A stretch of DNA of 62,155 bases, the filler included, from Hausera hauseri (lineage: Eukaryota): assembly GCA_046269625.1 (NCBI GenBank). It is 12 parts of 12 records of this genome, joined end to end, with 100 filler letters (N's around TTAATTAATTAA, not from the genome) between each part and the next. Parts side by side here need not be neighbours in the genome. Positions count along the whole stretch, not along the records: positions 1 to 5,309 come from JBJURY010283838.1; 11 more parts are not named here. One strand, given 5' to 3'. The notes below the pieces were generated by a model, which had not been told where the DNA came from, searched no databases, and saw only the letters and a program-made list of their open reading frames with translations. Made by a program: the position numbers and the translations under genes. Shown one piece after another: positions 1 to 41,733 of the stretch (position 1 is the first letter of the stretch; every line of letters begins with the position of its first letter).

Positions 1-3
1 ACG

Positions 4-1290
4 ATGCCTAGATATGTGTCGATTAATCCCACTTATTGTCGAGATGCAGCTGAAACTCAACAACTGAAATATGGAGACATATTACTAACAGCAATTAAAG
101 GCCAAATTTCTCAGCAAGAGAAATGGATAGCCGGACATAAGGATGAAAAAGGTAATTGCAAAGGTGGAAGTTTTGATACTGGCAAAGGTGTTATTTCAGG
201 AGTAGTAGTGCACGACCAATATGAAGTCGAAATCAAAGAAAATACCTTTATCTTCGAAACAAGTACGAATACAATGATGGATGCATTTTTCTGCAGATTA
301 GAAATTGGACATTGTCGCACAAAGTCATCTACTATAGTATGGACAGCGCCCAAGAGCTATAAATGCTCATTGGTACAGATTCGAAAAGGCGAATTTAATG
401 GAACGACAGGAAAACGTTACGCTCGACACTATGAAACAAACTTTAAAAATACAAACAGTCAAGCGATTTCGGAAGTGAGAACCCCTAAAATTATAATATC
501 CATAGATATAAAAGGAGGAGTTAAATTTATACAACATGACGTGATCGTTAAATGTGGACAACAAGTGCACAGTACAAACTATGAAAATTATTTCATATCG
601 GAAAAAGAGATTGCACAGGCAGATAATTCGCCAGTTAACAAAGCACAATTAGTGAACATTGCTGACTACATCGCTAACCGAGATGATTTCCTATTTTATC
701 TCACCCACAAAACGATAGAAAAAATATATTCTGAGACAATACAGAACTTTTGTAAAATCAATTTTGAAACATTGCGAAATCGATTGGCCATTTACGCTTC
801 AAATCCAGAGATGATAACAATAACATTGCCATTTGGCAAAGGAATCCAAGGCAGAGTCCTAGGAGAAGTGTTATTCACCTACAAATGCAAGAGATTGGAC
901 TTACCATTAATCACTGGTACCTCTTGCTACTCAGAAATACGATTTAAGTATGAAGATGAAATTCGATATATTCATTCTATAACTAGAGTATTACTGGCAC
1001 CACACACAATTCCGACGGAAATTGGGATCGATTGTGGACGCCCGATGCCTATACAAAAATAGTTTCCAGTTTATGGCACAAAATGTGGGGTGGATTTTTA
1101 AAATTTGGACAAGTAGCTTCCGGATTTCTGGCTGTTTACTATATCCTGCAAACTTTGAAAGTCTCAATTCAGTATTAAATGCTTACGAAATTTACAATCT
1201 GACAGGATTATCCTTGCGCATAATTGGTGCTCTATTTTCTCTTGGCAAATTTATTAAAGCTTATCATGAAAAGCAATGGCGAGGTAAGTT
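4..1290 (+). pseudogene. env: Chuvirus-like / herpes gB-type (class III) envelope glycoprotein, 5'-truncated, with a frameshift or deletion near 1060
   Basis: Cys pattern and motifs CKGGSF..VVVHDQYEV, CRLEIGHC..TIVWT, KCGQQVHSTNYENYFI, helical NIADYIANRDDFLF..CKINFETLRNRL, GRVLGEVLFTYKC..CYSEI..RYIHSITRVL..IDC match my recollection of chuvirus-type G. A hydrophobic stretch (LTGLSLRIIGALFSLG) lies in ORF 1022..1744. Confidence 0.75.
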
Positions 1291-2029
1291 AGTGAAATAT
1301 GTGGATTATAAGAAAGGCAATTCGATATTGGAAGATACCTCATCAAGTTCAGACTATGGTGTTGACGCACTTGGGCATTACTCAAAACCGAATATTTATA
1401 AGGGAAAGAACTGGAAAATCCGAAAAATTTTCACAATAAAGAAAATAAAACTAAAGAGCAATCGTATAGTACCAGAAGCTCCGTATGAAAATAAAACACG
1501 TTCGATTGACGAACAAACAATTCACAAACTACTAAAGTTATCTGACCTGAATGATCATTATGCTAAAAGAGAAGAGTACATACAGATACTCAGTATTCAT
1601 AAATGTTCGCAGGAAGAAATACTTCAATCTATTATTACTCAAAGTATGGAAAAGAATAGAGTATCACTACCAATCTCTCCCAAATTAAAAACTGCCACCT
1701 ATACCTCATCATCGAGTAAAACTAAATCGACCAACCAACGATAAGGATATCGAACAACCAAACGGACGGACAAATTATTTGATTTTAACAATGCCACCTG
1801 GTAACCTACAACAAAACTCTGCTGAACGTGCAAGTTATTACCCGGATTTAACTGAATTCAAACAACGAATGAAAGAGCCAACAAATGACGCACGATCTTT
1901 AGATAGCTCAACGGTCATATCAAAAGGATCACCAAGTTATTGTTCAGCAAGTTATACTTTAATGGAGCCACATATAGATGATCACAATGACATCCTGACT
2001 TTCCTTGAGTTAATAAGAGATGATCGACC

Positions 2030-5000
2030 TCATACGACAGTTCACTTCGGTATATTCGATATAAATGCAATGGTAGACACAGGAGATAGCGTTTCATTAA
2101 TAGCAAAACATGCGATACCAGACGAATATCAGTCACAAATAAAATTGGCCCCGAAAGAAAGTACCGGTACGACTTCAGCTTTTCAGCAGTGTTTAAAACC
2201 ATATGGGTATTGGAAATTCGAACCTATAATTTGTGGTAAAAAATAAGTGACTTTAGATGTAATGACAACTTTAGATCCTCGATGTATTTTAGGAATGAAT
2301 GTATTAAGAAATTTGGAAGGATTTCACAAACTTGCAGTCAGGATAGCTTTGTCCAAATACTGAGGTTATTCCGGATAAATACGATAGAACAGACATTTGG
2401 ATAGGACATGGCAAAAATACCACCTAATTTTAGGAAGGTTATACATGCTAAAATAATATTTTCAGATAATAAAATAATTGAATTCATACCACGGATATTT
2501 CAAAATGTATCATTATTGCCAAACTATTGTGTTTTCGTAACTGGAGGAACAATTCCCATTGAAGTTTTGAATTTATATCCTAAGTACTTTACAATATTTG
2601 CAAGAATGAAATTAGGCCAAGCATATGAAACTATCTGCCAACCTGAATATGATAGTAAAATCGTAGCAATCACTTAAGATAAGGAAACTAAAGTAGATGA
2701 TATATTCGATGTTGTCCTCACTAAAACAGAAAAATCTATCTGCTGAATACCTTGAGAACTTTTCAGACCTCATCCTTGAGTACATTGACATATTTGCCAA
2801 AAACGAAACAGATTGGACGAACTGACTTAGTCGAGTTCAAATTAGCATTTATGATGGATCCTCAAACTGGAAAGGAAATAGACTTACTGCGACAACCGAT
2901 ACCAAAATGGTACCTACCTCCAAAAGCACTCCAAAAGAAAGTTGAGTAGCAAATACAAGCCATGCTGGAAAAGGCATAATTGAACCTAGTCAATCACCAT
3001 GGCCGTCGCCTGTAGTTATGGCAAAGAAAGCCAATATCACGAAATACCGTTTATGCGTAAATTACGTTACGTTGAACAAATATTTGGCGAATCATGCTTA
3101 TCCAATATCACGAATAAGAGATTGATTAGTTGAAAAGTTGTAAATACTTCACCACATTGGATCTGCAAAGTGGATTTTGGCAGATTCCGATTTCCGAAAA
3201 AGATCGTTGGAAGACTGCATTCAAAACACATGCAGGCGTTTATCAATTTACACGTATGCCATTCTGATTAAAAATGGCACCTACATTTTTCCAGGAATTT
3301 ATCAGATTAGTTTTGAAAGGAGTACGTGGACTATCGTACATAGACGATATTTTAATTGCGTTAAAAACGTTCGGCACACTTAGTCGAATTACGAGAAGTA
3401 TTCGATCGAATCAGATTGGCTAAATTAAAACTAAATCCAAGTTTGAATGGTGTAAAACGGAAGTTAGATATCTTTGATTTGTTGTCTCAAATCTATGCAT
3501 ATCTACCAGTTTAGATTTAATATCTAAAATCTTCGAATATCCCCCATCAACCAACGTACATGAGATGCGATCCTGGTTAGGATTAGGAGGATTCTGCTAC
3601 ATTTATTGAAAACTTAGCGGAAATTAATTAACCTCAATACAAATTACTTACAAAGGATCAAAAGTGGGAATGGACGGAAGGAAATCAAGAAGCATTTGAC
3701 GAAATAAAAAGACTCTTAGTATCAGCATCCATACTACGATATTCGGATTTTCACTTCCATTTATCTTGAAAACCGACGCCAGTATTAAAGATATTAGTTA
3801 CATTTTGGCACAACAGTGTACAGAAGAGACAACTGAAGATGTGATTGCATATGGAGGCCGAAGTTTAAATAATGCCGAAAGGAAATATTCTACGACGGAA
3901 TTAGAATTATTAGCAATACGTGATGAATTACGACATGATTATTACGTCTATGGTCATAAAATTATAATATTCACGGATCACAAAGCACTACTCTGCCCTC
4001 AGACAATAGACATGTATCAAGTCGACTCGAAAGATGGAAATTAGAACTTGAATTATGACATTGAATATCGATATCGACTAGGAAAAGATAATGGAGGCGC
4101 ATATGCAATCTCTAGATTACCTTATGAAAATATAGTTGCTGAAGTTCATAAACCACAAAGCCGAGAAGATAGAGTTAAATGAGAAAATTATTAATCACAT
4201 TTTACAGGAACAGAGACAAATTCAGGTTCAAAATATTGAAAACTTACAAAACCAAGATCCATTTATTGTCCAAGTAAAAAGTTAATAAACGGACATACGG
4301 ACGTTTTAGCATCAAGTCCTATTCAGAAATTTTACGGACAACATAAGGAACAATTAGATATTGAAAGTGGAATATTAAAACTTAAAGTTGGCGAAAGAAA
4401 GTTAATTATTGTACCGAATTCGGCAATGAAAGCAGTTATGCTTCAAGAACATGATTCCCATTTAGCGGGTCACCCGTCGTTAAACAACACTTTGAAACGC
4501 ACTGCTACAAAATATTGGCCTCAAATGAATAAACATATTGAAGGATGGGTATGTTCTTTTAAAATGTGCGCTACCCGTAAGGATAGAGGATTCCTTTTCT
4601 TAGGAAGTGTTCCCGAAGCACAACTTATGGAAGTGTGTTCGATAGACATTTGTGGACCGTTTCCGGCATCTGAATCAAGATATAAATACATTTTGTCAGT
4701 TGTTGATTACTATTCAAGATATGTTGTTCTAATACCTTTGAAAATTATGACTAATCATACGGTAACCGAAGCATTCTTTTATGATGTTATGGCCGTACTA
4801 GGCACACCGAAACAGTTATTGACTGCTCGCGCACCTTATTAGTGAATTCTTCGAAAAATTATCAAAGGTATTCCAGTTAAACATCTATTAACAACATCCT
4901 ACCATCTGCAATGTAATGGCATGGTCGAACGAATGAACCGAATCATTCAAGGTATCCTATCAAGAGTTGCACATGACCAAAAAGACTGGCACCTACATCA

Positions 5001-5309
5001 TAAAACCACAGCCTTCGCAATTAATACTACTCTTACCAAAGGTACTAACCATTCACCACTCGAACTTATGTTTGGCCGATTACCGCTTCTACCATTGGAT
5101 ACAAAATTGTTGCCAGCTTCGCTGAAAACAAGTGATCATATGGATAAACAATACCAAAGTTTGTTAACAAGAATTAAAAATTTCCAAAAGGAAGCCAGAG
5201 TTTGAAGAGAAATATAAAGCTGGTTATAAGAAACGATGTAACAAAAAATCTCGTCCACATAAGTATAAAATTGGTGATTATGTTATGATACATTATCCTG
5301 CCGTTAATA
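2030..5309 (+). pseudogene. pol: Ty3/Gypsy pol: aspartic protease, RT, RNase H, integrase (fragmented)
   Basis: AMVDTG at 2076; SPWPSPVV, LDLQSGFWQIP, KTAF, YIDD at 3337; KTDAS..YSTTELELLAI..TDHKAL; HDSHLAGH..W..CATRK; IDICGPFP, VDYYSRY, NGMVERMNR. Confidence 0.95.
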
Positions 5310-13460: not shown

Positions 13461-14968
13461 TTACACATTTATACAGTAATGTCCATATGCGACAATTTTG
13501 TTCCTTGTTATCCACTGACGTTTGTAATCAAATAGGTCAAATGTCTTTTTTTCTCGATTGGATTGTCATCAGCTGATGGTTTTTAGTGCTAATTTGTTCC
13601 TGACCCACAGTGGTGCTGCAACCGGTTTCGTATGCTTGTAAGTAGTTACTGAACTACAAATCGCTTTGTTTTAGATTGATGCCTTTGCATTTGAGGACGG
13701 GTTTGGTTTGGGTTTCGAGGGCATAATATTTTGGTCTGAAGAAAATTGCCTCTTGATATTCAACACAGCCCTTACTTTCGTTTTTAAATTTTCCAATTAC
13801 AGACACAAAACGAGTAGAGTACAGTGGATCACTCTTTTCATAGTTTGAAGTGTTCAACTGTTTATTGGATATCATTGCCGGCAAGAGTTGTGCTCGCAAA
13901 TCAAAACCGTGACATTCAAGAAAGAATCTGTCAGTGTCACCGGCAACAACATTAAGGTCACAACTGAACTGGTGTCTATAGTTCTCCAACTCGATATAAT
14001 TTAGCTTATACATTCGTAACTTGGATAGATCAAGTACGGCCTGACCAATGTATGAGAGTCTATCTAAGGTGACAATGTCATTATCCAGAAGAACAGCAAC
14101 CAGGTCATCTGCTATAATAATGCTCTCTTTAAACTGGGCCATACTAGCATATGTAATTAACTTTTTATCATTATTATACAGTCTCAAATTTAACCTTTTC
14201 AACAGGTTTTCAACTGTTTTCCCATAAAAGCTATTATTCTTAAGCTTAAAGAAGTCTTTTTTGAAAGGATTATTTACTGTAGCCCTCTTTGCAGTATTTA
14301 AGTCAATGTAATCCTTAAAGGCATAACCATGGTCAAACTCAACAGCCCGATGAACATTTTCAACTACTGTGCCTAACTCGATGTACAACTGTAAGAGCCG
14401 ATAGTGAACAACATAGTTGGACTTACGCTCATGTGCCAGCAACAATTTCTTTACTTTAGAACTAGGGGGACATTGGTTAATTGGGGTTAGAGGCAGTTGT
14501 TCCAATTTATCATGTTTGTCAGCTGGAATGCTCAAGTCAACTTCAAAGACTAAGCGTCGTTTTTCCTTAACACAGTCAATGAAAGGTAATGATTGCATCA
14601 GACTAGTCAAAATGTCTTTATCGTAAATCCAAGTCAGATTCGCAAATGGCAAAACTTGTGATAAAGCCCAGCCGTAAAAATTATTCACATCTATATACAA
14701 GAGACTGGTGCTTTCATCTGTTACAACTCTATGCTTATTTACAAAAGTCATACCACCGCTAATTCCCGATTGAAAGAAACTGTACATTTCAGGATCTTGA
14801 ATGAGCTCAATCTTACAAGGACTTGATTTCAATGCTGTGGCCCAAGACAAACCAGGAATAGAAACGAAGTTAACTGCCTCTAATCCATCCTGCAACTTAA
14901 CCTCTTTTCTAAACCGTTCAAAAACATCACCTAACAAGTATACGTCAAGCTTCATATATACCAACATA
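13461..14968 (-). pseudogene. polB: Protein-primed family B DNA polymerase (Polinton/Maverick type), 5'-truncated
   Basis: LDVYLLGDVFERFR..PGLSW..ALK, YIDVNNFYGWAL (motif A), KLKNNSFYGK (motif B), AGDTDRF (degenerate DTDS), KCKGI. After the stop at 13654 homology continues with a frameshift to FDYKR..VAYGHY. Confidence 0.92.
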
Positions 14969-15504
14969 NNNNNNNNNNNNNNNNNNNNNNNNNNNNNNNN
15001 NNNNNNNNNNNNTTAATTAATTAANNNNNNNNNNNNNNNNNNNNNNNNNNNNNNNNNNNNNNNNNNNNATCGTTAAAAAGATATTCAATTTTTGAAAATA
15101 CAATTATTTGTGACAGTGACTTTTCTTACCGCAATCGTGTTTTTTTGGATTTAACAACTAAATTGGTGTCAGATATCAAAAAACAGGTACGATTTAAACC
15201 AAACAACCGTTGTTGTACACTTCGAATATAGGACGTATTCTATATTTAATGTTGAGGTTTGTATACAGATTTGTATTATATGGAACTTATAAAAATTGTT
15301 TTAAAAAATTCTTTAAATATTGTCATTCAAATGTTGGACTCAGTTTTCATCTCTACCTTGGCCCGAATCTCTTGCTCATTGTCAGTGCCGTATTCAATGG
15401 TCATAATGAAGAATCAATTATTTATATGCGCTCAGTTATGCGTTATTTGAATTTATCCTTTTGTTTAGTGTTACGGGCAATTTCTTGTAAACGTATACTA
15501 AACT

Positions 15505-16007
15505 ATTTCGTTCATGTCAACAATCCGGACGTTTGGGTTTATCTAGGTTGTTGTCAATTCTTTCTCGGAATGCACCAAGAATCCGGTGTTTCAGCTAAGA
15601 AAGCCCCGAAAAGCCGATTCCAAAACCGACTGAAATTCCATTTATCGCACAAATTCAATGACAAACGTTGGCCAATTTCGTTCCATCAGAATTTTCAAGA
15701 TATTATTGAAGACCAATTATCACTGGCGTCCATTCATTATCTGCACAATTACTGTCAAGAATCCATTGATGTTTACAAACACATTTTGTTGGAATATCGA
15801 GATTTCTTTGCCTTGAACGTCTATGTTGCATTATGCTACTACAAATAGGATTATTATTATGTTTCGCAGGAAGTTCTTTAGATTTTTCTTCAACATTATC
15901 CAGATAGTGTCATTGCTATCAATTTAAAAGCATACAATCATTTCAAACTATACAACGGTAAATCTGCTGAAGCCGAATTGAAAGCTCTTTACGACGTTTC
16001 AACACAG
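15505..16007 (+). pseudogene. TTC26: IFT56/TTC26 fragment, 5' part
   Basis: QNRLKFHLSHKFND..FHQNFQD..EDQLSLASIHY..ALNVYVALCYYK*DYY.VSQEVL..PDS.IAINLKA.NHFKLYNGKSAEAELK; contains in-frame stops. Confidence 0.93.
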
Positions 16008-17376
16008 TGGCAGTTGAATTTTACATCAAATTATAGTTCGAATGACTATAAAAAACACAAATTACTTAACTAATAGTTTGCCACCATTGCATGAATCGGT
16101 TTCACAAATTTTTAATTGTAACGGACCCATCGAGTCGGATTCTATTGAATATGATACCTATGGAGGTAACATACCCACTCAACATATGTTAGATAAAAAT
16201 GCTGGGAAAATCGTTTCCAATAGCTTTGATTCCAGTTTCAATTCCAAAGAGGAAAAATATCAAAATTTCGTTGTGACAACAACAACATCCAGTAGAGTCA
16301 CTCCAAGGAGGTTGATATCATTTAAACACCATCAGAATATAGAGTTCCGATGATGAAATATGGTCACGTAATACTACAGTTCTAACATCTTCCATTCATG
16401 TAGAACGACCAAAATCTACGCGGAATAATTTTACATCGGATAGTTCCAAATTGAATTCCAATGCTCCTGAATTTAAACCAAAAAACACAGTTATGTTACC
16501 AGAGAATATTAAAAAGTTTCGCAGTAATGATGATGAACCAATGAAAGAAATTGAAAATCGATTTTCGAAGTTGAATATCAAATCTAATGAGTGTATGAAA
16601 AACGAAGAAAACTGTCCGAGAGTCAGTAATCCCAATAACGACATTATCAGCTTTAGCCAACAATCCATTCAATACTCTTCATGAATATGCTCAACAGAAA
16701 GGAATGGAATTATCCATCAGAATGACGGAGATGGGAGGACCTTCTCATAAGCCAAGGATATCTATGGCTGTTGTTTTAAATAACAGACAATTCGGTACGG
16801 TTACGTCTTCAAATAAAAAGGATGGCAAGCGGAAGGCCGCTGATATTGCTATAAGAACACTGATTTCTGAAGGGAAATTTACTAAATCAGTCAAGAAAGG
16901 TGATCCACCACCTTATGACTTATACGGTATTACGGTCACAATCATCTATGGTGTCTAGTTATAACAAAATTGTCAATCTTGTTTATGAAAAGTTTTCGCA
17001 TTTGATGAACGAGCTATCTAGAGAAAAAGATATGAGCCTTTCCGGACGAAAAGTAATTTCGGCAATTATAATGGAAAGCAAAGATGATTATAAAGTTGTT
17101 ACATTAGCAACTGGAAATATGTGTATAACAGGAGATAAAATTAGTTTACAAGGCAAAGTTATTAATGATTCCCATGTCGAAGTGGTAGCTCGTAGAGCAT
17201 TGATGTTATTCTTTTACAAGCAGTCATTTGAATACATTTCCAATTCATTTAAATCCCTCGATATTTTTGAGTCAGCTGAAGAGACCTGTAGTTTCAGGGC
17301 CTTTGGAAAACTTAAAATTGAATCTCACGTAAAATTCCATTTATATATATCAACAGCACTATGCGCTGATGGTGCT
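16008..17376 (+). pseudogene. ADAR: ADAR fragment (linker, one dsRBD, N-terminal half of the deaminase domain)
   Basis: dsRBD LHEYAQ..GGPSHKPR..NKKDGKRKAADIAIRTL; deaminase RKVISAII..LATGNMC..VINDSHVEVVARRAL (HAE-like), FHLYISTALCADG (STAPCGDG-like). Confidence 0.9.
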
Positions 17377-18016
17377 TCACAAATACTAACGGGATTAATC
17401 AATACTTTATCGGAAGCCCGGTTAAACTTAGTAATTTATTATTTACGAATGAATGACGTTACGCAAGCATACGAATTAATAAAAGACGTCGACTCAACAA
17501 CACCACAGGAACATAGTTTGAAAGGCGTCGTTAATGCTGTTATCGGGCCAGAACACAGATCTCGAAAAAATCTCAAATTAGCCCCACAATATTTCCAATT
17601 AATTGGCGGATCGGCGAGTGAATGCGATACAATTCCCGGACGACAGTACATGGCATCGCGTTTTTTTCTGTTGAAACGATTCGCGAACGTTTTGGTTTAT
17701 CTTAACTCAATCAAAATCTATTTCTACAAGGGTGATACGTTCAATTACAATCATGCACAGGCTAAAGCCGCCGTTGGTACGTGTAAAGAAGCCGAAGAAG
17801 TTTTCCTGTTAATTCAAGATTAAAAAATCAAAAACGATTACGTCTACCTAAGTTGGTTAGCCAAATGTTACATAATGAACAGGAAATTCCGAGATGCATG
17901 GGAACTGTATTTGAAAATGGAGACGTCCGCTGAATTTTTTAGTCTGTTGCAATTGTCTGCCAACAACTTACAAAATGGGCGAATTCTATTTTTCAGCGAA
18001 AGCATTCGATGTTTTC
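17368..18016 (+). pseudogene. TTC26: IFT56/TTC26 fragment, 3' part
   Basis: EARLNLVIYYL..TTPQE..KGVVNA..FQLIGGSASECDTIPGRQ..YVYLSWLAKCYIMN..AWELYLKMETS..KMGEFYFSAKAFDV; one stop and one frameshift. Confidence 0.95.
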
Positions 18017-18649: not shown

Positions 18650-21600
18650 TGCGCCATGTCCCCTTTCTTTTCTCATCCTTTCTAATAATAAACACGTCCA
18701 CACATTAAGGTTTACAGACAAACAAACTACTCATATTCTTTATACTGAATTGTCCTCCTATTTCGGCTTTTCTGATTTTTACCTTATGCACAACGGTCTA
18801 ACTCTGCAACCTTACGACTCTTTCATCCTTTGCACCCGAGAAATATTTCATTACTCTCACTGTCCATTTTCGCACCCGTGGTGGATCAGACCTCGATCCT
18901 TCTACTGAACACTTAACAAAAACCAGGTCTGGTCGTCGCCCTCTCGACCCTACACCATCAACATCTCCAAACCTTCCGTGTAAAGACTTTTTCCTCGATA
19001 AAACGAACTCGAGCCGAACTTAGCTACAATTTTATCTTCAATGGCTCAAAGCCAATTACATTACAGATCCCTTTCTGCAGGCTAACAGTTTAGTGCTGTT
19101 ACTCCCAGCCAACATCAAACAGCAGATAAGTAGCTTGGCTGACATACTCTCCTCCTCAAGCCCGTATGATATGCTGTACGAATCGGTTCTACATATCACC
19201 GATCCTTCTATCGACAGCATAATCCAGAAGTACTTTAACGAACACGCCATTGGAAATAAAAAACCATCAGATTTCCTTAAAACGGCCATCTCACAACTAA
19301 GCTGTTTAGGCGTGACTCCGACGAACAATGCTGATCTTCTTCGTCGATATTTTCTCGCATCTCTGCCAACCTCCATCCGAGCGTTGCTTACTGTAGTAGA
19401 TGACTCTACTGCCCTCGAAAAGCTCGCCTTATTGGCAGACAAAAGCTTCGATATTCTGCAGTCCAATAACTCGCAGCCTGTAGCCGCAGCAACTGCTTAC
19501 ATACTGCCAGACAACACTTTATTTGCACAACAACTAAACATGATGCAGAAACAATTCGATATCCTACAACAAGCAATTTCTGCAATCACTGCCCAACTCA
19601 GCGACTTATCTGTGCCACGAGGAAGCGAAAATCGTATTTCCCGCGATCGCAGTTTTTTCAGGCACTCTTCTCGTCCTAAATCTAAAGAGGGTAAAATGGT
19701 GTGCTTCTATGACAAAAAATTCCGCAGAGATGCGAGGAAATGCCTTTTAGGCTGTCAATTCTACGATGCACGATATTCCGTAAACAATCCAATCTGATTC
19801 TATTACGCAAAGTACCAGTCCTAGGCTAGGTCATGCGTGCCAGAATGTAAACATTATAAAAGGAATTCTTCTCCAACTTCTTCGCCTCCGCGCACTCACC
19901 ATTCCTCCTCTTTTTACCATTAAGTCTCAAAAAACCAGTAATGCCACCATATGCCACGGCACATTTTGGTACAGACAATATAGTTCAAACTACTGGCCGT
20001 TTCAACACCGTTTCTGCAGTCTTTCTGTTGAAAGCTGATTTGTTATTTGGAGATACATCACAGATAGATTTCCTTATTGATTCAGGAGCTGCATTTTCAC
20101 TTCTTCCTTTGTCTTTCGCTTCTACATTTAACACAGTTCTGTCTCCTCCACTCTTCACTGTTGTGGTCAACCTTTGAACATTGTAGGTACCACAAAGCTG
20201 CCCTTCTCATTCTACAACTTACCAGGGAAAATTTCCTGGAATTTTCACATAGCCAACATCAGGTCGTCCATAATAGGCACCGATTTTTTGGCTGCATACG
20301 ATATGTTAGTCGACTGAAAGCATAAATGCCTTCTGCGCAGAGATTTCACTGCCAATTCTAACAAATACTCACCAAACGATCAGCCGAAAACTTTGTCTTC
20401 CTCAGATCGTTCAAATATCAATGTGACATCCTGTCCATCGGTTGACAACAACGCGTTCAACATTTCATCAATATTTTCAATCTCGTCAAGTGGGAACAAA
20501 TAAATCTTAAAACATTCGGCTGAACAAAATGTCGTTAATGAATCACCTAGTCTTTCTACATCGATTACAGCAACTGACTCTTATAATGATATGCCATCAT
20601 CATTCTCATCATTAGATTCTGACCTTAAATCCTACATTAAGACTTCTTGTTCCCGCACTCTTAAGAAGTACATTAATTTCAAACCGCATTCTACAACATA
20701 TCACCACATAGTCACCGAACACCAAAGACCTATTAGACAAAAGGTCAGACCACTGTCACCTCGCAGACGAAAAGCCGTTGAATCAGAGTTCAACGAACTC
20801 GAAAAAGCGGGCATTATTCGACGATCTAAATCACCATGGGCTTCGCCTTTGCATGTTGTGACGAAAAAAATGGCACATACAGACAATGCTGTGATTATCG
20901 GCAGTTAAATAATATAACAGTCATGGATGCTTATCCTTTACCGTTAATAAATGACATCCTGCATAGCCTCACCAACACGAACACGTACTCCACAATTGAC
21001 TTGCATAAGGCATATCATCAAATCCCCGTTGCACCTGATGATATTCCAAAAACTACTATCATTACTCCATTTGGCCTCTACGAATATATCTTTATGCCAT
21101 TTGGTTTGCATAGTGCCTCTCAAACTTTGCAACGGCACACTGATACTGTACTCTAAGGCCTAGATTTCGCTCATCCATATATTGATGACATACTAGTTGC
21201 CTCTACCTCTGTCAAACAACATCAAGAACACCTTCGTATCACTTTTTACCGATTACATCACAGCAATTTGCAAGTCAACTTCGCCAAGTGTAATTTCTTT
21301 CAAAAACGTGTAAATTTCCTAGGTCACGTCATCACTCGTGACGGCCACTCTACACAACCGGATCGACTACAACAATTAAAGAATATAACGCTACCAACAA
21401 CTACCACGGACATGAGAAGCTTTTTAGGCACACTCCACTTCATCCACAAATACGTGCCTCATTGCTCTGAACTCACGGCACCTTTTGCACATTTATTTTC
21501 AGGAAAAAGAGGCAGTTGATCCACTAAACTCCTGATCTGGTAACCAAGTTTGACCACTTGCGCGAAGGTATTAAAACCGTTGAATTACTGTCTTACATTA

Positions 21601-21967
21601 AACCCAAGGTAGATCTTATACTTGCAACCGATGCCTCAACCACAGCTACTGGTGCTGTACTACACCAGATCTTTAATGGTATCGACGAGCCATTAGAATT
21701 TTATTCTAGGAAACTAACACAACCTGAGAGCCGTTACTCCACATTTGATTGCGAGTTACTTGCCATAGTTCTGGCAGTAAAACACTTCAAACACTTACTT
21801 CTCTCTCGTCCATTCGTAATTCAAACTGACCACAAGCCTCCGCTTCACATCATGTCGTTAAAAGAGCCATCACCAAGGAAAGAGAGACATATGTAGTATG
21901 GCCATCAATGCGCAAAGATGTACAGGACTGGGTTAAAGAATGCATAGCCTGTCAAAAATACAAAATC
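18650..21967 (+). mobile_element. Ty3/Gypsy retrotransposon (CsRn1/Boudicca-like), copy 1: Ubl leader - gag - PR - RT - RH - partial IN; decayed
   Basis: Gag KPSDFL..FLASLP..LEKLALLADK with C-x2-D-x9-C-x3-C knuckle; FLIDSGA; SPWASPLH, DYRQLN, YIDD; TDAS..RYSTFD.ELLA..TDHKP; WPSMRKDV..CIACQ after a deletion. Confidence 0.93.
19093..19797 (+). CDS. gag: Gag core of Gypsy copy 1 (the true ORF begins upstream and is disrupted)
   Basis: ORF track; clear homology to 27525-28340. Confidence 0.85.
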   Translation: MLLLPANIKQQISSLADILSSSSPYDMLYESVLHITDPSIDSIIQKYFNEHAIGNKKPSDFLKTAISQLSCLGVTPTNNADLLRRYFLASLPTSIRALLTVVDDSTALEKLALLADKSFDILQSNNSQPVAAATAYILPDNTLFAQQLNMMQKQFDILQQAISAITAQLSDLSVPRGSENRISRDRSFFRHSSRPKSKEGKMVCFYDKKFRRDARKCLLGCQFYDARYSVNNPI

Positions 21968-27216: not shown

Positions 27217-30200
27217 GCATACGAACATTTTGCTCATATTATATCACAGTAATTTTCCTTCCATGTTTTTAGCAATAACCAGCATATAAAAACCATAATA
27301 GCTCAACTCATCGACAGAGCAGAGCTCTTATACAACTCTTTATCCTCCTTATTTAATACTTCCGACTTCTACTTCATATATGAGGATCCTACTATACCTC
27401 CTTCCGACTCCCTTTTACTATTCGCATATCACCAATATCCGATCATCCATTTCACGCTCCACTTTGGCCTTCGGGATGGATCGGACCCAAATCCATTTTT
27501 CTCGGATGATATATCTACAAATACATGCAATATCTATCGTTTACCAAACTCTCAACAGTCAGGAGCTTTCATAAATCTACCTTCCGTAAACCATGGCTCC
27601 AATTCCACCAACAGTGGCTAAAGTCTAACAACACCACTGACTCTTTCTTGTGTGCCAACAGTCTTTTAATTCGTCTACCTGCTAACGTCAAGCAGCAGAT
27701 CAGTAAACATCTCTAAACTGCTCCAATCCTCGACACCTTACGAAACACTGTGAAGCTGTACTCCATATCACGGATCCTTCGATATACAACATCATGCAAA
27801 AATACTTGAACGACCATGCAATAGGAAACCAAAAGCCATCTGACTTTCTTCAAACGGCCATATTGCAACTTAGCACCTTAGGTGTAACGCGTACGAATAA
27901 TGCGGACCTAACTCGCCGTTATTTCTTGTTGTCTTTCCCCACCTCAATCAAAACATTGCTTATCGTCGTCGCGAATCTTCTGCTATTGAAAAATTGGCCA
28001 TAATGGCTGATAAGTCCTTTAAAATTCTCCATAAAAATAACTCTCTTCCAATTGCGGCTACAACCACACACGCGCCACCTATAGACACAACATTTTCACT
28101 CAACAGTTGCAAATGATGCAACAATAATTTGACACATTACAGCAGTCAATTTCGGCCATTACCATCAAACTAAACAATCTTAATTGGCCTCGGCAGTGAA
28201 ACCACAATCTTCAAAGGAGCGAAGCACTTCAAAACACTCTACGCGATCCATTTCACCTGACGGACGCATGGCTTGCTTCTATGATACGAAGTTTCGAAAG
28301 GGTGCAAGGCACTGTTTCTTAGGCTGCCGATTCTACAGCAAACCATTTGTATCTGCCATAATAAGTACCAGTCACAGGCCAGATCGTGTGTGCCTGGTTA
28401 CAAATATTACAAAAATAAATCTCTTCCTTTTTCCTCCCCTTCTTCTTCTCCAAATTTTAAAAATCTAATACTACCGCCAGATTCCACTGCACATTCTGAT
28501 ATAGGCAACATATTGCATTTTTCTGGCCGTCTTAATACCACCTCTGCAGTCTTTCTGTTGAAAGCTGCAATCTTCTCTGATAATATAGGCCATGTGGCGA
28601 CTATTGTCATTTAAGCAACCTGAACATTACAGATGCCTATCCGCTACCACTCATTAAAGATATCCTTCATTGCCTCAATAACAACATTACCTATTCTACT
28701 ATTGATCTGCACAAGGCCTATCATCACATTCCTGCTGCACCTGATGATATTCCAAAAACTGCTGTCATCACACCATTTGACCTTTATGACTATATCTTCA
28801 TGCCTTTCAGCCTACGTAGCGCATCTCAGACCTTTAAACGCCATATTGATACTGTACTTTCAGGTCTTGATTTTGCTCATCCATATATAGACGACATTCT
28901 AGTCGGTTCCACATCCTTCAAACAACATCGTGAGCATCTCCGAATTATTTTCTGCAGATTGCATAAAGCAACCTGCAAATTAATTCCTCCAAATGTAATT
29001 TCTACCAGAAACGCATCAACTTCTTAGGCCACATCATTACTCTCGATAGTCATTCCTCTCAGCCTGGTCGTTTACAACAGTTAAAAAATGTGACACTACC
29101 AATCAGTACCATCTACATGAGGAGTTTTGTAGGGACACTGAATTCTGTACACTAATACGTTCCACACTGAGGCACCTTTGGCACATCTCTCATCCGGGAA
29201 GAAAAGACAATTAATCCACTGGACTCCTGATCTAATAAACCAATTTGATCGCCTTAGTGAAGGTCTGAAAACCGTTGACATTTTGGTTTTCCCAAAACCC
29301 AACGCCGAACTGATACTAACCACCGATGCCACCATCACAGCCACTGGTGCAATATTACCTCAGATATACAATGGTGTCGATGAGCCGTTAGAATTCTATT
29401 CCCGAAAGCTCACGCAACCAGAAAGTCGATACTCAACATTCGGTCGTGAGCTCCTGGCCATAGTTCTAGCGGTAAAGCACTTAAAGCATTTGCTTCTATC
29501 ACGTCAATTTGTCATCCAAACCGACCATAAGCCTCTACTTCATATCATAATGTTAAAACAGCCATCGCCCAGACAAGAATGACAAATATCATACCTGTTA
29601 ACACTTAGCTTTTCTATGAAATATATTTCAGGCACCGAAAATTTAGTATCAGACTTTCTATCGCGGTCGGTCAGCTCAATTACAGTTCAGCCAATTTTCT
29701 CCTCTGAAATTCAGAGAAGTAATCAGCCATCGTCTGATATTCTCGAAGCTTTTAAATCTGTTGAGATCACTGGTGGCATCGCCTACGACTCATCCGACTC
29801 AACTAATAAAAAAATCATTCTTGCTCCATCGTTACAAAAGACAGCTTTCACTCACTTTCACTCACTTCATCATCCTGGTTCGAAAGCCACATTTCGTCTA
29901 CTAAAATGCCACATTGTATGGCCAACTATGCGTGCAGATGTACAGGTTTGGGTTAAGGGGCGTGTAGCATGTCAGCAATATAAAGTCCATAAACACTTCA
30001 AACCACCACTTTACCACTTCCCTTGTACGCATCGTTTTGACGCTGTTCATTTGGATTTTGTCGGCCATTTACCATCCGACAACGGTTATCAATACATTTT
30101 ATCTATGATAGATAGCGCTTCTCGCTGATCGGAAACCTTTTCTCTTCGATCATCCAATACCGATTCGGTAGCAGATGCCTTTGGTTCACCACGTCACATT

Positions 30201-31500
30201 ATAACGGACCAGGGTCCGTAATTTGAAGCTGCTCGTTTTAAATCTGTGGTAAAACACTTGGGATAGTCCATTTCAATACAACACCGTACCATCCTTAAGC
30301 AAATGGTCTTCCTGACAGATTTTACTGTATTATGAAGATTTCCTTAAATATCTTGGCAAACAATAATCATAATTTCACTTCAATTCTTCCTCTTGTCTTA
30401 CTCGGTTGGTGTAACAAGCCATCCACCACTACATGTTGTGCTCCAGCTGAGGCTTTTTTTGGGACACCAATTCGTGCTCTATTTGAGCTTTCCAACCTCG
30501 ATGAAAGCCCTTTAGATGAAGATATTTGTGCGGCACAGTCCCACTTTGTCGATGTTAGCTCAAACACCTTTTGCCGCCTTATAAATAAAGACAAATCGTA
30601 TATCAGAGGACTTATACTCAGCTAAGTTTTTATGGCCGAAGGATCCGTCACCTTCTGATTTCCGATCCCAGTACTTTGACCCTTATAAACTACTTAACCT
30701 TTCTTTTCACACCGCTATGATTTTACGTAAGGGCAGACCTCAAAAGGTACATATTACTAACCTTAAGCCAGCATTCTTCGTTGACAATGACCAGGATAAC
30801 AGCCCTGTTTCAAATCCTAACGCTAACTTCTCTCACCTCGAGCCATTATCTAATTTCCTCGATGATTTTGATCCGTCGCAGCAATCACTCTCGCGGCACA
30901 ATCAGCTCTCTTCACTTTTGTCATCGTCCACTGCTCCTTCACCACTTACTTAGCCGTCATCGCCTGCACATCCACAACTCATTTCACCTTCATCGCACAA
31001 TTCGCTTTTATCTTAAGTCTTACCTTCTTCGTGTGATGTTTTTCTTTTTCAGCTTCTTTTCCACTTTTACATCTTCATGATGCATCCTCCCAAAGCACCA
31101 CAAAATCTACAGCATCTCTCCCTCGAACAACTCCACAAGCAACAGCAATATCTAACAGATCACGCCAAGTGACATTTAGAACCTACATTAGGGAGACGTT
31201 CATATATGGAATCAAACGTCTGACATACCAACATCGAAGAGGTACAAGCTGTTCCTTTTCTTACGATATTCTACGTTTATTTTCCTTTCTTTATAGTCTT
31301 CATATAGCCACGCGAAAGGGGGTGATATAGTGCCTGAAATGTGGTTGCACTGGAGAGATTAGCGGAACGGTGAGGATATTTTCCCCACCATGTGAATACA
31401 CTTTTAATTTTGTTAATCTGTTATTATAAGTTTCAAATTAATAATTATGGAATAAGAATAGAAAAACTGTAGTTTATATATGCGGAGTTTGAATGTACGT
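27217..31500 (+). mobile_element. Ty3/Gypsy (CsRn1-like), copy 2: Ubl leader - gag - (PR deleted) - RT - RH - IN - PPT - start of 3' LTR
   Basis: Homologous to copy 1; HPYIDD, TDAT..RYSTF.RELLA, HSLHHPG..W..CQ, HLDFVGHLP..IDSASR; PPT gcgaaagggggtga near 31312-31325. Confidence 0.93.
31312..31325 (+). promoter_or_regulatory. Polypurine tract of Gypsy copy 2
   Basis: Purine run downstream of the integrase tail, followed by TATAGTG (possibly a mutated TG LTR start) and a change in composition. Confidence 0.6.
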
Positions 31501-32076: not shown

Positions 32077-33400
32077 GGGTGTAGCTGCCATTGGAATAGT
32101 ATTTTAGATCGGCAGCTTCTGCGCGGCATACTGGACATGTAGTTTTTCCATTCTCTAATGTCCATTTTTCTAAACAGAACCTACAATATTTGGGGCATTC
32201 GTTTTCCTCCTTTTCCCATTTTTTATCGTCTAAATCTACTCTCAGCATAATTTCTATGGGTTCTAGGATTAATCCATCTTCCTCTTGGTATAGGTAAGCT
32301 GCAATTCTTTTTTGTTTGGGATTTATCGAGCTCTTTTTCGGATCACATCCTACAGGTATTAAGGTCCAATCGCTGATAGTATCTCGATCTAAATCGGGAA
32401 CTTCACCAGTCGACTGGTATTTCTGGTATTGCTTCTTTAACATCGCCTTTACTGATTTGTCTACGGGCACCAAGAGTTTACCATTTTTTCTTGATTGAAA
32501 TATCGGGGCAACATATTTTCCTATCTTGGGATTCTCCCAGACGTAGGTATTTTCGTAAACTTGCCGTGCGGGCGTCGCTTTGACAAAGAACATTGCTTCT
32601 TTGATTTTCTGCTTACTATAGTATTCTGTAGCTATTAGCATTCGGGGATGATCTGCTGTGGTAGCGTAATGGACATTTTCCGTGGACGTCTTTTTCCGTA
32701 AGACGTTTATTTCGGTTATGTGTTCTTTTTTGTTGTCCGGTTTCTTCATTGGTTTATTGACGTATATTTGTGTGTCTGGTTTTGAGTTTTCTTCCGTTTG
32801 GTTTTCTCGCTTACGTGTCTGTATGGGTTCTGAACGTTTTCCGATTTTTGTTTTTCTTCTAATCTCCTATCTTCTTGCTTGCTTTTTTTCTTAAATAAAT
32901 AATCAAAGAAGGATGTCTTCCTTTTAGTCGTTTTGCCACTTTCGGTTTCTGGGTTCTTATTGTGTTTCAAATATCTCTGAGAAGTTTCAGGTATTCTAAA
33001 CGGATAATCCTGTGTAGCGTAGCTTGTACTGGGTCCTGCCTGGATTTGCCTTTGATTTTCTATCCTTTTGGTTCTTGATCCTTGTATGATTATTTGATAG
33101 TTCCATTCTGGAATAATCTCGACGCTTCTGGGTGGAGAATATGGGCAAAAATGTCTGCGATAACGTGTGTTTAAGTCTTGGATCCTTGGGAAATTTAGTA
33201 GGTTCTGTCCAGGGTTATTGGGAATCCATTCATGCTCCCATTTAAGCCCAGCATTTATATCCCTTAGGTATTGGGATCTTTGACTGGCGGTTAGTATTCT
33301 ACTGATTTTAATATTTCCTTCTGTCATGACCTCTATCCTTAGCGTAAACCGGCCTTCCGGGGTTAATAGAATATGGCCCTTTCTTTTTTTGTCTTTGATT
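32077..33400 (-). pseudogene. Accessory ORF ending in a C3HC4 RING finger (first half of the RING deleted in this copy)
   Basis: KYCRFCLEKWTLENGKTTCPVCR; the full RING is visible in the paralogue at ~40515-40655. Confidence 0.8.
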
Positions 33401-33409
33401 TGTATTTGT

Positions 33410-34407
33410 TTAAACTACGGTTGGGTGGTATTCCAATTCTCTTATTCCAGCTAAGTGTTCTAGCGGTATGTTTAATTTTCTTATTATTCTTTCTACCTGA
33501 TACCCCACTAAGACGTATCCGCAGAAACATTGTGCCACTTCTTGTTGTATCATTTTGAGATCCTTTCCTTGCTTCAATTGGTCTCTTTTAATTCCAGTGA
33601 CTTCTGCGTACGTTTCGAGTATTTTCTTCCTTGGAGTAATAATCTTTGAATAAATTTCGACTCCGTTCTCTTCCCGAATGGATATTTCGATTGGAATATA
33701 GTCCTCTTCTCCTTCGCCGTAATTTACTGCTACAACCCTAATGTTCCTGTCGTCCGCTACCAACCTGAACGAATATAAATGATTTTGGCGTTCAACTTCT
33801 GTAGGCGTTTGTCTAAATTTTATAGGGGATAGTGCGGTGAGTATTGTTTCTTCTTTGGTCGTTTCGATCATCATTTTGACCGGTAGGGTAGCTATATGAA
33901 ATTCTAGTTTGTAATCCTTGAAATTCCTGATATCGAATACGAACGTACTGAACCGACTCTGCCTTCCTCGGAAGGAATCCCATTTTTGTTCTTTCAGCCG
34001 ATAATATATTTCTCCGTCGGCTAAATGTACGTATATTCTTTGTTGCTCGCCCGATCAATATTGAGCGATCTGTTTAAAGGGATAGACCCTGGCGTCCTTA
34101 TCTTCCCTCCATGCATACAAATATACTGTCCTGGTTTCCTCGGTCATTCCTTTTAGGCCGTTTGGGATTTCGCTGACTTTACCATACTGGGCAAAATTTT
34201 TCCCTTATAATTCATTATTGATTTGTCTGTATATAGATTTGAATTTGGAATTCGCACAGTTACGTTTCTCTGTAGAAATTCGTCGATACTAAGTCGACTT
34301 GCAGCGTTCTCGGTATCGTTTTCAATGTCGACTCTAATTCGGCTCGCATTCTCTCCTGCGTCGATCCTAAGTCGGCTAGAATCCATTTGCGTCTGGTTAC
34401 TTACCAA
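33410..34407 (-). pseudogene. Accessory ORF: unknown N-terminal domain plus REX4/ISG20-like DEDDh exonuclease fold lacking catalytic acids
   Basis: VVAVNYG..ISIREENGVEIYSKIITP..YAEVTGIKRDQLKQGKDLKMIQQEVAQCFCGYVLVGY..IREL follows the REX4 pattern (IALDCE..VSIV..YV.P..VSGI..L..G..VQ.EV..ILVGH..IRDT). Confidence 0.75.
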
Positions 34408-34433
34408 TCTGAAGAAAAAGAGATAAAGGTTAA
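34399..34433 (-). promoter_or_regulatory. Splice acceptor, 4-nt exon and GTAAGT donor (copy A)
   Basis: Minus strand reads TTAAC-ctttatctctttttctt-CAG|ATTG|GTAAGT; the same layout is present in copy B. Confidence 0.65.
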
Positions 34434-34506
34434 TTCTAAAACAAAGGATGGCTTTAAACCAAAACCAATTCTTTGTTTTATGACAGAATAACCTGCTCTG
34501 TAATTG

Positions 34507-35004
34507 TCAGATTATTTTATCATACGGATCTACAGGGTTCTCCAGCTCCCTTAATTCCCACTCTGAATTTTCATGGCGCTTAAAATAACAGTTTTTGGTG
34601 ACTAATCGAAAAATCGCAATTAATATAATGAGAACAACCGTTGACAGCACCGTGATAAATACAATTTGTAGCGTAGATAATCCCATCGGCGCTTGTGTGG
34701 TGACTCGAGTGGTGATCTGCTCATCTATATCCTCGTATGCGTGGGATTCTGTCCGAATCTCATTTAAGGTTAGCAGTGTAATGGTCTGATTCTGTTTATT
34801 CCTTGCACATATTTGTACTATATATTCGGTTTGCGGTTTTAATAAATTGCACTCGGTTTGATAAGTATTGCTAAACAATGTCACCTCTTGATTATTATTC
34901 GTTGTCCGACAATTTATGTATATGTCGTAGTTTTGTTTCTCTTCCACGAAGAACACAATCTTAGATCGATATACCGAATATTTAATGGGAATGCTTTCTA
35001 GCAT
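34507..35004 (-). CDS. FN3-like domain, TM helix and short tail; in-frame continuation of the IN ORF
   Basis: CNLLKPQTEYIVQICA (L.P.T.Y.V FN3 signature) and TM LQIVFITVLSTVVLIILIAIF; separated from the upstream ORF by one in-frame TGA. Confidence 0.8.
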   Translation of the reverse strand: MLESIPIKYSVYRSKIVFFVEEKQNYDIYINCRTTNNNQEVTLFSNTYQTECNLLKPQTEYIVQICARNKQNQTITLLTLNEIRTESHAYEDIDEQITTRVTTQAPMGLSTLQIVFITVLSTVVLIILIAIFRLVTKNCYFKRHENSEWELRELENPVDPYDKII

Positions 35005-37294
35005 TCAGTTCGTAGTGATAATCGTAGTGCTGCGGGTTGTACTCGGCGTTGTGGATGGTTTTCCTGTAGTGGTCGGTTGTAGGAGCTCCCATACTCTGTT
35101 CTTTGGGTGATATCCTCTTAGGAAAACACTTCGTTCACCCGGATAGGTATCGTACAAGTCAAATCGTAGTTCGTACTTTTGTCCTACTTGTACTATGCAG
35201 CAGACTGTGGGACGTCGCTTTGCCAACGAACAATATGTTGGTCTAGGAATAAAGTTGTTAAATGGCGTAAAATGGACTGAGATTTCCTTGTCTTCTGGTA
35301 TTCCAAATTTAGTCTCGATCCGAATGCATTGGTTTCTCAAATCCTTGTGAATTCCAATAATATTATCATCTAAGAGTCTGTTAATCGGATCAGTGCTTTG
35401 AATTATTTCGTCCGTCTTTTCCTGATTGGTGTCCTTTTGTTGTGGCATTTGTATTGTGAGCTCTGAGGCTATGTCGGCTTGAGTTCCAAACTTATAGGAA
35501 TAGAATAGCTGAAAGCTATATCTATAGACTTTCCCGAATTCTAGGTTACAGCATCTCCTGTGGTGTCCGTATGGGAAATCGCATACACTCATTTCATCTC
35601 CAGTGGTTATAAATGTTATCTGAAATCCTATGTGTCTCTGAATAGGATGGTCTGATTCGAACCATGCACATGGCTTTCTCCAATCCATATCCCGTATTCT
35701 GAGTGTCTGTAAATTCCGGATATCCCTTTGTTTGGCGCTTGTTTTCACTGTAGGTATATACGAAACAATTAATGATAAGGCTAAGACTATTTGTACATAA
35801 GATATCGGTCTAGTAACTATCGACGAAGTTTTTACTTCTCGCTGGCGTAAATTGTAACGTTTATTGGGTCGTATTTCCGTCTTGACGACCCTCTGTACTG
35901 ATACTACTTCTTCTTTTCCATTCTTATTGATATACACTGTGGTCGGCGTCACTCGGATGACTTCATACGGTCCTCTACCCGTACGAGTTAATTTCAGCGA
36001 GGTACCTTTTTTGGCTACTGGATAATGTACATAAACCCAATTTCCTTGCTCTATATTATGCGGTTTCGCTTTCTTATCATATTGTTTCTTGAATTGCTCT
36101 TGATATTCTTGAGATAATTCCTTGGCGATTCCCCAACACCTTTTCAATCGCGTTTGTAACACCTCTGCAAAATTTTGTTCTAAATCTTCCGGATTAACTG
36201 TGTATGGTGTCATTCCTAAGTCCGTAGGCAACACGGCTTCACGTCCATACATCATAAAGAATGGTGTAAATCCTGTTGCTGGATGTGGCGTGGTATTAAT
36301 TGCAAATTGTGTTCCTTCTAAAAATTCGTCCAAATCCTTTTGGTCCTTAGCCACTACTGTTGACAATATACGCATGACGGTAGCGTTCATTCTTTCGATT
36401 ATTCCATTACATTGGGGATGATATGCGGTAGTCGTTAATCGCTCGATTTCGAATATCTTAGTGATTTTCTCAAATAATTCACTGGTAAAATTCCTTCCGC
36501 TATCCGTTAATATTTGGTCAGGTGGTCCGTAACGGCAAATAATTCTTCTTACTACAGCTTCTGCCAAGGTTTCCGCTTTTTGATCGACTAATGCTATCAA
36601 CTCGACAAAATGAGTTAATCGATCGATGCACGTTAATATATATTTATTGTTCTTGTGAATTGTAGGAAGAGGTCCTACGATATCCGTCGACATGGCTTGC
36701 ATGGGCCTATCGGGGACATTGATTGGTTTTAATTCGGCCATGTAGTTTTTTGTTTTCTTTTGTTTAGTCGCACACACCTCACAGGCGCTTACCCAATTTT
36801 TTACATCGATATAGATACTAGGCCAAAAATATTTGTTTATTATTCTTTCTAACGTTCTCTTCCAGGACATGTGTCCGGCTAAATACGAGTCATGTTCTGA
36901 CATCAGTACTTCGGTTCGTAAACCTTTTGGGATAACTATCAATTTTCTTCCTTTTCGCTCGTAGTATAAGATGTTTTCTTTGTTTCCATCATTTATGACG
37001 CAATATTTATGTCCGTATCTGCGTAGATGTTTCTTTAACTGTCGCGCTTTTGGTATGATGTCCCTTGTAGCAAATTCTATAATCTGCTGAATAACTTTGT
37101 CGTTTCTTTGTTCCGTTGAAATCTTAATTGTTCTATCTATCGTTAACGCACGTTGGCGGTCTATTATTTCCTCCAGTTGGCCTTTCTTCATTACGGTGAT
37201 TGCACTTGTTTTAGTCCTTAATCTCGATAATGCGTCAGCATCGACATGTTTATTTCCCGGCTTATACTGAAATTCAATATTATATCTGGAAATT
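35005..37294 (-). CDS. pol: Pol C-terminus: integrase fused to a signal peptide, a Cys-containing ectodomain and a Thr-rich stalk
   Basis: YKPGNKHVDADALSRL; HDSYLAGH..CEVC; TDIVGPLP..IDRLTHF..TDSG..YHPQCNGIIER; GPY; then YVQIVLALSLIVSYIPTVKT, two CC-containing repeats and TTTGKPSTTPSTT. Confidence 0.9.
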
Positions 37295-37850: not shown

Positions 37851-39086
37851 ATGACATCTGCAAAATCTGAATTATGTATATTTGACAAAGCGGCGCCACA
37901 AGTTGTTATTGACAATGCGGCATTTGAAAAAATCTGCCCCGTTGATTCGGTTTCAACGGACGATAACATTGACATTCAATGCAACATTATGGAATCGGAC
38001 AATGAATAACTGGATTTGAACAATACGCTACTCTATGTAAAAGTCATTGTTAAAAAGGATTCGTCAACGGTTCTCGCTGCAACAGGCACTGTCACACCGG
38101 CCAATTACCTTTTCCTCACATTGTTATAGGAGACTTCACTGACTCTAAACTGCGTCAAAATTGAAGGCAACACCAGTCTATACAGTATCAAAGCACTTAT
38201 TGAAACTGCTCTGAATTAAAGTGGAGACACAAAAACGACTAATTTGACGAAAACCATCGGATACAATGCCACAGCGGCAAACCGTTAGGCATGGGCAGCA
38301 AAATCAAAAGCACTTACAATGTGTGGACCGCTGTACTTTGAATTTTTCGATCAGCCGAAATACCTACTTCCCGGTGTTAAAGCCATGATTCGGTTGAAAC
38401 GCAGCGACAATGTCTTTTGTTTGAAAACCGCCGTTGCACAGCTTAAACCCATACTGAAAATTATTGAGGCACGATTATACGTACGTCGTGTAAAGGTAGA
38501 ACCATCTGTGCTCATGGGCCATCAATTGGGCTTGGAAACACAAAATGCCTGTAACCCGATACAACGCACAGAACTCGTCTTTTACACCACACCGAAAGGT
38601 TCAACAACGTTTTACAAAGATGCACTTTTTGGCGACATGCGATTGCCGAAATTTGTGCTTGTTACATTTCAAACGACTGTTCGACAAACGGGCAGTTATA
38701 CCGCCAATTCGGAAACGTTTACTCATAGCAATGTGAATTACATCAGTTTGGGTCGGAATGCGGATTTCGTTGAGAAGTACAAATAAGATTTCGAGTCTAA
38801 TGATTATTTTTGAACATATATGCAATCTGTAGTGCACAACATGGGTTTGCTCAACAAAAGCATCACCAATGGCATATCGATGGATTTGTTCAAGTCCGCC
38901 TATCTATTTTTCACCTTCGTGCTGGCTCCGGATTACGATGTTGAACAGACTCAACTACCTCAGAAGGGAAACCTACCACTGGAGGTTCACTTTGCCAAAG
39001 CGTTGGAGCAATCTACCGTGATGTACGTTTACGGTCTATTTGATGCTGAGGTTGAAATAACGAAAAAGGGAACCGTCATTGTTTAA
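37851..39086 (+). pseudogene. Polinton major capsid protein (double jelly-roll)
   Basis: KSELCIFD..PQ..I; LDLNNTLLYVKV; ANYL; GPLYFEFFDQPKYLLPGV..IRLKR..FCL; ARLYVRRV; KGNL.LEVHF.KAL; several stops. Confidence 0.88.
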
Positions 39087-41729: not shown

Positions 41730-41733
41730 TAAC

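Follow-up and report, generated by a model that had tools for sequence, protein, structure and literature searches.

Does the first contig of the DNA stretch analysed here hold a retrotransposon that carries its envelope fusogen in front of its polymerase, and are the two made as one protein? The stretch, hereafter the window, comprises 62,155 nucleotides (nt) from Hausera hauseri (assembly GCA_046269625.1), in which short contigs are strung together with N spacers, and the element in question takes up the entire first contig (positions 1-5309). An initial annotation had read it as a Cys-rich glycoprotein (G) with a transmembrane (TM) segment, followed on the same strand by a linker and by protease (PR), reverse transcriptase (RT), RNase H (RH) and integrase (IN), and both the order and the identity of these parts are borne out by matches to PF24664, RVP, PF17917 and PF17921 and by tblastn (Table 1). 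We regard it as very likely that G directly before PR-RT-RH-IN is the order of parts in the Ty3/Gypsy family to which the contig belongs. It is also likely, though less securely so, that the contig is a dead and incomplete copy belonging to an abundant Ty3/Gypsy family, whose intact members produce Gag, fusogen and Pol in a single polyprotein, in the manner of the planarian element Burro. The contig starts within env and stops just past the integrase, so that gag and the long terminal repeats (LTRs) are out of view, not absent.

The frame-1 open reading frame (ORF) at positions 1-1062 (353 amino acids [aa], open at the 5' end) matches the Monjiviricetes_fusion family (Pfam ID PF24664) with an E value of 6.2e-25 and 87.7 bits against a cut-off of 27, residues 7-333 of the ORF lying on profile positions 105-420 of 653. 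All 10 Cys residues of the G fragment fall at columns that are at least 90% conserved in an alignment of 108 proteins. A PDB search with the single G sequence gave one match, which was irrelevant; the profile of the G alignment matched 35 PDB sequences (best E 4e-4), of which 34 belong to herpesvirus gB. The predicted structure (mean pLDDT 89.3) shows the fold of this type, with beta-rich fusion and PH domains and a long central helix, here at residues 220-267. Its matches in BFVD are to chu-like and related glycoproteins (best E 8.6e-15), and in VIA the top eight rows of 48,161 aligned chains are all class III fusogens (gB, thogotovirus, and rhabdovirus), the best row having a Z score of 7.1 and a root mean square deviation (rmsd) of 15.3 over 288 aligned residues. 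Foldseek against the PDB matched gB weakly, with a best E of 6.7e-3. Sequence profile, fold model and structural matches combined firmly identify G as a class III fusogen, in agreement with the fold that the initial annotation had proposed. The TM anchor is present, about 100 residues of the ectodomain are missing, and the N-terminus lies beyond the contig. The single ORF that had been drawn over positions 4-1290 does not hold, the ectodomain lying in frame 1, the TM helix in frame 3 and the tail in frame 2, with some 80-100 residues lost.

The polymerase is that of a Ty3/Gypsy element (Metaviridae), with the order PR-RT-RH-IN and Ty3-type RT, RH, and IN on the plus strand. None of the Pfam matches (PF17917, PF17919, and PF17921) is Pao-specific and the closest structure-sequence match is Ty3, setting the element apart from BEL/Pao elements such as Anakin. 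The Pol of a relative, P0002, likewise has its best match among solved structures in the Ty3 Gag-Pol (E 5e-119). A gB-type env stands directly 5' of pol in this contig, as in the GAG-ENV-POL errantiviruses, and sequence, fold and relatives together support the idea of an enveloped Gypsy element with env before pol.

Between G and PR, an open frame extends over 193 codons, a length reached in none of 5000 Markov shuffles, for which reason we call this linker coding. It had been described as Ser/Thr-rich, which is true only mildly (its two frames have 17.6% and 15.7%), and the first frame is equally rich in Lys/Arg. The region between G and PR shows no CCHC knuckle, no match to the Gag profile of the relatives or to a Pfam gag family, and no second protease. 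It also lacks an LTR-like non-coding gap and has a sole purine run of 12 nt (1565-1576), within the linker frame. Two public runs placed 10,094 and 1,055 contigs on the stretch, over a wide identity range and with depth in 30 of 30 bins. Among them, overlapping diverged contigs (about 12-16% different) tile positions 1218-1454, 1333-1543, 1496-1712, 1540-1827, and 1773-2077, so that env tail, linker and PR are adjacent in other copies too.

An HMMER scan of 1.84 billion representatives with G returned 280 matches at an E value of at most 0.001, of which 150 were listed. In 10 of the 18 best matches PR or RT follows G in the same ORF, and the other eight end 2-364 residues past the G match. Among the 150, PR comes after G in nine, RT after G in five, and a CCHC knuckle before G in six, while PR, RT, or IN before G occurs in none. 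A second search (proteins of 1444-4598 aa) found PF24664 with a protease in 11 of 11 proteins, 10 of which also have RT, RH and IN; as it took long proteins only, it is biased to fused forms, and it contributed nine further fused relatives. Env is in frame with gag and pol in 21 listed relatives. Retrotrans_gag or a CCHC knuckle precedes G in P0002, P0006, P0009, P0014, P0016, P0018, P0269-P0272, and P0274-P0276, and 16 of the 20 proteins with room upstream have a hydrophobic segment ahead of the ectodomain. The full pattern of the relatives reads Gag, internal hydrophobic segment, gB-type ectodomain, TM, one to five proteases, RT, RH and IN, and polyproteins of 3,700-4,029 aa belong to clusters with as many as 21 members. 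In P0005, P0001 and P0014, G is immediately preceded by a Bcl-2-like segment. The expression of G as part of a polyprotein, as first surmised, is therefore seen in the closest relatives, from which we infer that the reading frame probably runs unbroken from G to PR in the family of this contig as well. In a quick G tree (68 of 117 rows usable), the G of this contig, which has a long branch, is sister to the polyprotein G sequences (SH-aLRT 93). Stand-alone G lies apart from them, for example that of Hardyhead chuvirus, whose glycoprotein is one named match of the scan.

One relative is filed under a bacterial metagenome-assembled genome, where it most likely represents animal DNA in a metagenome bin. 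A word-based search for long G homologs found none in 1003 candidates, although the full HMMER scan did find them, and related-locus scans gave 151 pattern matches in JGI metagenome contigs, of which none was confirmed, and none in viral contigs. P0151, P0006, P0007, and P0268-P0275 each consist of a single ORF, the longest of 4,844 aa; they contain as many as seven aspartic-protease domains, some of these past the integrase, and additionally ankyrin and C2H2 domains and, at the C-terminus, a membrane protein running from a signal to a TM.

The copy at 1-5309 is dead and partial. A frameshift-aware alignment places about nine stops and 17 shifts (about 26 breaks, approximate at 30% identity) within 3275 nt of Pol and one shift at the TM, and zero breaks in 15-996, a contrast with a P of about 4e-4; from env to pol the reading frame is interrupted near positions 1010, 1168, and 1690-1740. 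Intact relatives map collinearly onto the contig, with the ectodomain at 1-1000, the TM at 1020-1168, the tail to about 1276, PR at about 2020-2325, and RT-RH-IN to 5110. At nt 1000-1020 the tblastn alignments jump from residue 573 to 656 of P0001 and from 805 to 906 of P0002, and 92-104 aa separate the same two matches (ectodomain and TM region) in relatives. None of the 40 listed majority differences of the public-run contigs falls within 1-940, these 40 being the best-supported rows, chosen non-randomly out of about 1190. The break-free first kilobase and the lack of listed differences in 1-940 suggest a mosaic, in which a young or collapsed piece would be joined within env (about 940-1020) to an older copy.

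This mosaic look raises the possibility of an accidental adjacency, in which a nested insertion, a deletion or an assembly join brought an element ending in env next to the pol of another, since it is the front part that lacks both breaks and listed differences. However, the junction lies within env, and TM, tail, linker and PR are all 3' of it and bridged by other copies; there is no LTR-like non-coding gap, and the order is common to the relatives. Accidental adjacency is largely refuted, and we give it only a slim chance. The same contrast between a G unbroken over 1 kb and a break-riddled Pol could reflect a domesticated, truncated env kept open by host selection. The absence of listed majority differences from 1-940 is what a young or collapsed copy would show, not an old selected one, the family is multi-copy and its 5' end is unseen, making this explanation highly improbable.

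It is harder to dismiss that env and pol, although in the same order, are separate reading units, with a stop or a programmed frameshift in the linker (overlap 1689-1741) lowering Pol output. Two long overlapping frames meet there, the linker is without a homolog that would fix its frame, and Chary and Hayashi (eLife 2026, PMC13524379), in the part of the paper available, describe such ORFs as GAG-ENV-POL without calling them fused. About 17 other frameshifts in the copy are plainly decay, however, and close relatives with room after G have no stop between G and PR, except for the short, unexplained P0005, so that we judge separate units to be rather unlikely. An ENV-GAG-POL order with a short gag hidden in the linker, as in two oribatid mites, does exist (PMC13524379, as far as its accessible text goes), and the linker offers about 245 codons; yet neither a CCHC knuckle nor a match to the relatives' Gag profile or to Pfam is found there, and in the relatives Gag precedes G, leaving very little probability for this order.

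Some results weigh against our preferred reading, a dead copy from a family with a Gag-fusogen-Pol polyprotein. The structural scores for G (Foldseek against the PDB and VIA) are modest. Identity to the relatives is low (25-36% for G and 28-35% for IN) with no intact copy of the window family seen, the IN tree is unresolved and does not place the window element inside the relatives, many of the 21 fused proteins are closely related and are not independent cases, and P0005 ends shortly past the TM. The linker has no detectable homology to the linkers of relatives, so that the frame switch at 1689-1741 could be genuine, and the tiling contigs are short, come from different copies, and none covers the whole stretch.

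Taking the order of parts, the class III identity, the decay and the single-ORF layout of the relatives as given, we infer a mechanism in which Gag would be synthesized in the cytosol and an internal signal sequence ahead of the ectodomain would thread G into the endoplasmic reticulum. The TM helix would halt transfer, and linker, PR, RT, RH and IN would emerge in the cytosol, tethered to the membrane via the G tail. Signal peptidase and the element's own protease, the latter cutting the linker, would then release the parts. A single ribosome pass would yield Gag, fusogen and Pol in equal amounts, gathered on one membrane for budding, and the resulting enveloped particles could potentially move between cells.

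The env-before-pol layout and a gB-type env in such elements are already published, and the contig adds a new member. The nematode endogenous retroviruses on which Sacco et al. reported in 2022 are said to have a continuous gag-env-pro-pol ORF. They resemble the window element, as far as their description was accessible, in the flipped order of env and pol and in an env captured from an RNA virus, and differ in their nematode hosts, whereas a host gene in the window groups away from nematodes (see below). Burro is one of the giant planarian Gypsy elements that Arkhipova and Yushenova (2019, PMC6431247) treated together with GYPSM1. Its env stands between gag and pol, in frame with both and directly ahead of PR, an arrangement called 'the first case' in 2019 in the accessible part of that paper. 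The same excerpts describe matches of its env to mononegavirus glycoproteins and a flatworm host, together with a Bcl-2-like segment before env, ankyrin repeats, and two to three CCHC knuckles, the last three of which we also see in relatives of the window element. Giant size and a cargo of BIR, ankyrin and Bcl-2 domains characterise Burro-like elements, and cargo of this sort is seen here in the relatives only. They do not clearly name the fusogen class or mention multiple proteases and a second membrane protein, and we liken Burro to the window element by description, not by sequence. The available text of Chary and Hayashi (PMC13524379) describes gB-type GAG-ENV-POL Ty3/gypsy elements in Nematoda, Bryozoa and Platyhelminthes and a chuvirus-like G beside gypsy pol, citing Sacco et al. 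(2022) for the nematode elements; its main text, as available, uses none of the terms 'polyprotein', 'fused', 'single ORF', and 'same ORF'. These errantiviruses share with the window element a Ty3/gypsy Pol, a gB-type env before pol and a probable flatworm host, and differ in that the nine flatworm elements originate from Macrostomum, Prostheceraeus and Schmidtea, and in that the window copy is decayed. The premise of novelty in the initial annotation is thus overtaken by both papers (PMC6431247 and PMC13524379, each as far as available). As the layout is known, novelty is limited to one more family, probably from flatworms other than the three surveyed genera.

Anakin is similar in that an LTR retrotransposon captured a chuvirus-like glycoprotein, but according to the accessible text (Dezordi et al. 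2020, PMC7642597) it has a BEL/Pao Pol and a mosquito host, in contrast to the Ty3/Gypsy Pol found here. Cer1 of Caenorhabditis elegans was considered as a parallel and ruled out on comparison with the available part of PMC10309623. A literature search for single-ORF enveloped flatworm elements returned nothing relevant. The intact polyproteins of 2,600-4,800 residues from metagenome assemblies show that the layout is widespread, and they raise the questions of how Gag, fusogen and Pol made 1:1 at a membrane are processed and packaged, why the protease has multiplied, and whether a second surface protein, which resembles fibronectin III (FN3), is the receptor-binding partner of the fusogen.

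The last question arises from the region past the integrase, ahead of which the contig at 1-5309 ends. At least two hydrophobic segments frame a beta-rich region there in 12 of the 14 relatives with an integrase; a further protease past IN is found in 7 of these 14, and an FN3-like motif pattern, written after viewing the sequences, in 5. The model of P0260 matches FN3 domains (best E 6.5e-4), which is a lead only, since its mean pLDDT is 44. It is possible, but on the doubtful side, that the family of 1-5309 belongs to a lineage with two membrane proteins per polyprotein, a gB fusogen and a separate attachment protein. Such a product would be laid out as Gag-[signal]-gB fusogen-TM-protease(s)-RT-RH-IN-(protease)-[signal]-FN3-like repeats-stalk-TM and as many as seven proteases would cut it, so that a retroelement would follow a strategy like that of flaviviruses. 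Our literature search found no report of extra proteases and an FN3-like membrane protein in such elements, which Sacco 2022 and Grohme 2018 may describe.

A second Gypsy family in the window (32077-37293, minus strand, with a sibling at 40282-42911) is present as the 3' half only. In its ORF at 35008-37293 (minus), the integrase is continued in frame by a signal-like segment and FN3-like repeats; further ORFs are FN3-like with a TM (34510-35004), exonuclease-like (33413-34054, by eye, with no Pfam match), and RING-type, the sibling having a Pfam RING match at 40282-41058. Its IN is 37-44% identical to that of the G-Pol polyproteins and closer to them than the IN of 1-5309, and its Atlas score of 0.84 is a lead only.

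Table 1. Parts of the Ty3/Gypsy element in the first contig (window positions)
Feature	Position	Strand	Evidence and remarks
Class III (gB/chuvirus-type) fusogen ectodomain, middle part	1..1000	+	5' end cut by contig start; PF24664 E 6.2e-25, model, Foldseek, VIA; no stop or frameshift
Break with frame change; about 80-100 C-terminal ectodomain residues of relatives missing; possible two-copy junction	1000..1020	+	tblastn gaps
Fusogen membrane-proximal region and transmembrane helix, frame 3	1020..1168	+	blastp E 1e-9 to 1e-11 to TM region of relatives
Second hydrophobic helix/cytoplasmic tail start of fusogen, frame 2	1163..1276	+	Weak matches to same spot in several relatives; one frameshift near 1168
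Coding linker, about 245 codons; an open frame to 1741 overlaps a second one from 1689	1277..2018	+	No recognisable homology, gag or extra protease
Aspartic protease, DTG near 2076, one in-frame stop	2019..2325	+	RVP E 3.2e-5 (nt 2019-2174); relatives' PR profile E 1.8e-10 at 2031-2315
PR-RT spacer, at position of Burro's dUTPase-like domain	2326..2700	+	Only weak matches to same spacer of P0275 and P0276 (E about 0.09)
Reverse transcriptase plus connection, with numerous breaks	2706..3745	+	tblastn of P0007, P0261 and others; YIDD motif near 3337
RNase H	3748..4080	+	PF17917 E 1.9e-20
Integrase, H2C2 zinc finger and DDE core	4411..5110	+	PF17921 E 1.6e-11; rve E 1.4e-4; 28-35% identity to IN of relatives
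Integrase C-terminal (GPY/F-like) domain, start only	5204..5309	+	tblastn to same place in P0007, P0151, P0261 and P0269; contig end, N spacer from 5310

Self-BLAST of the joined stretch found no repeat of contig 1-5309 elsewhere in the window. Two related decayed Gypsy copies (19024-21967 and 27253-31077; 64-75% DNA identity) have the ordinary gag-pol order, with no env seen. The host was approached through an SLC35F pseudogene at 44900-45685 (best named match 48%), which groups with three cestode proteins (SH-aLRT 98), away from nematodes, in a quick tree of 38 rows with long branches; judged by this sequence, the host is probably a flatworm or close to the flatworms. Positions 15198-17820 hold intron-free broken host-gene pieces run together, namely a bestrophin and an ADAR-like deaminase (both by Pfam) and a third piece that presumably resembles IFT56/TTC26. 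ORFs at 13657-14967 (minus) and 38289-39528 resemble, by eye, remnants of Polinton DNA polymerase, capsid and protease, and the three that were scanned had no Pfam match. An intact bacterial-type ORF of 741 codons at 53605-55827 (minus), with AAA-ATPase-like and PD-(D/E)XK nuclease parts and N-terminal repeats (PF09820, E 3e-37, and PF08011), may come from a symbiont contig or from horizontal transfer.

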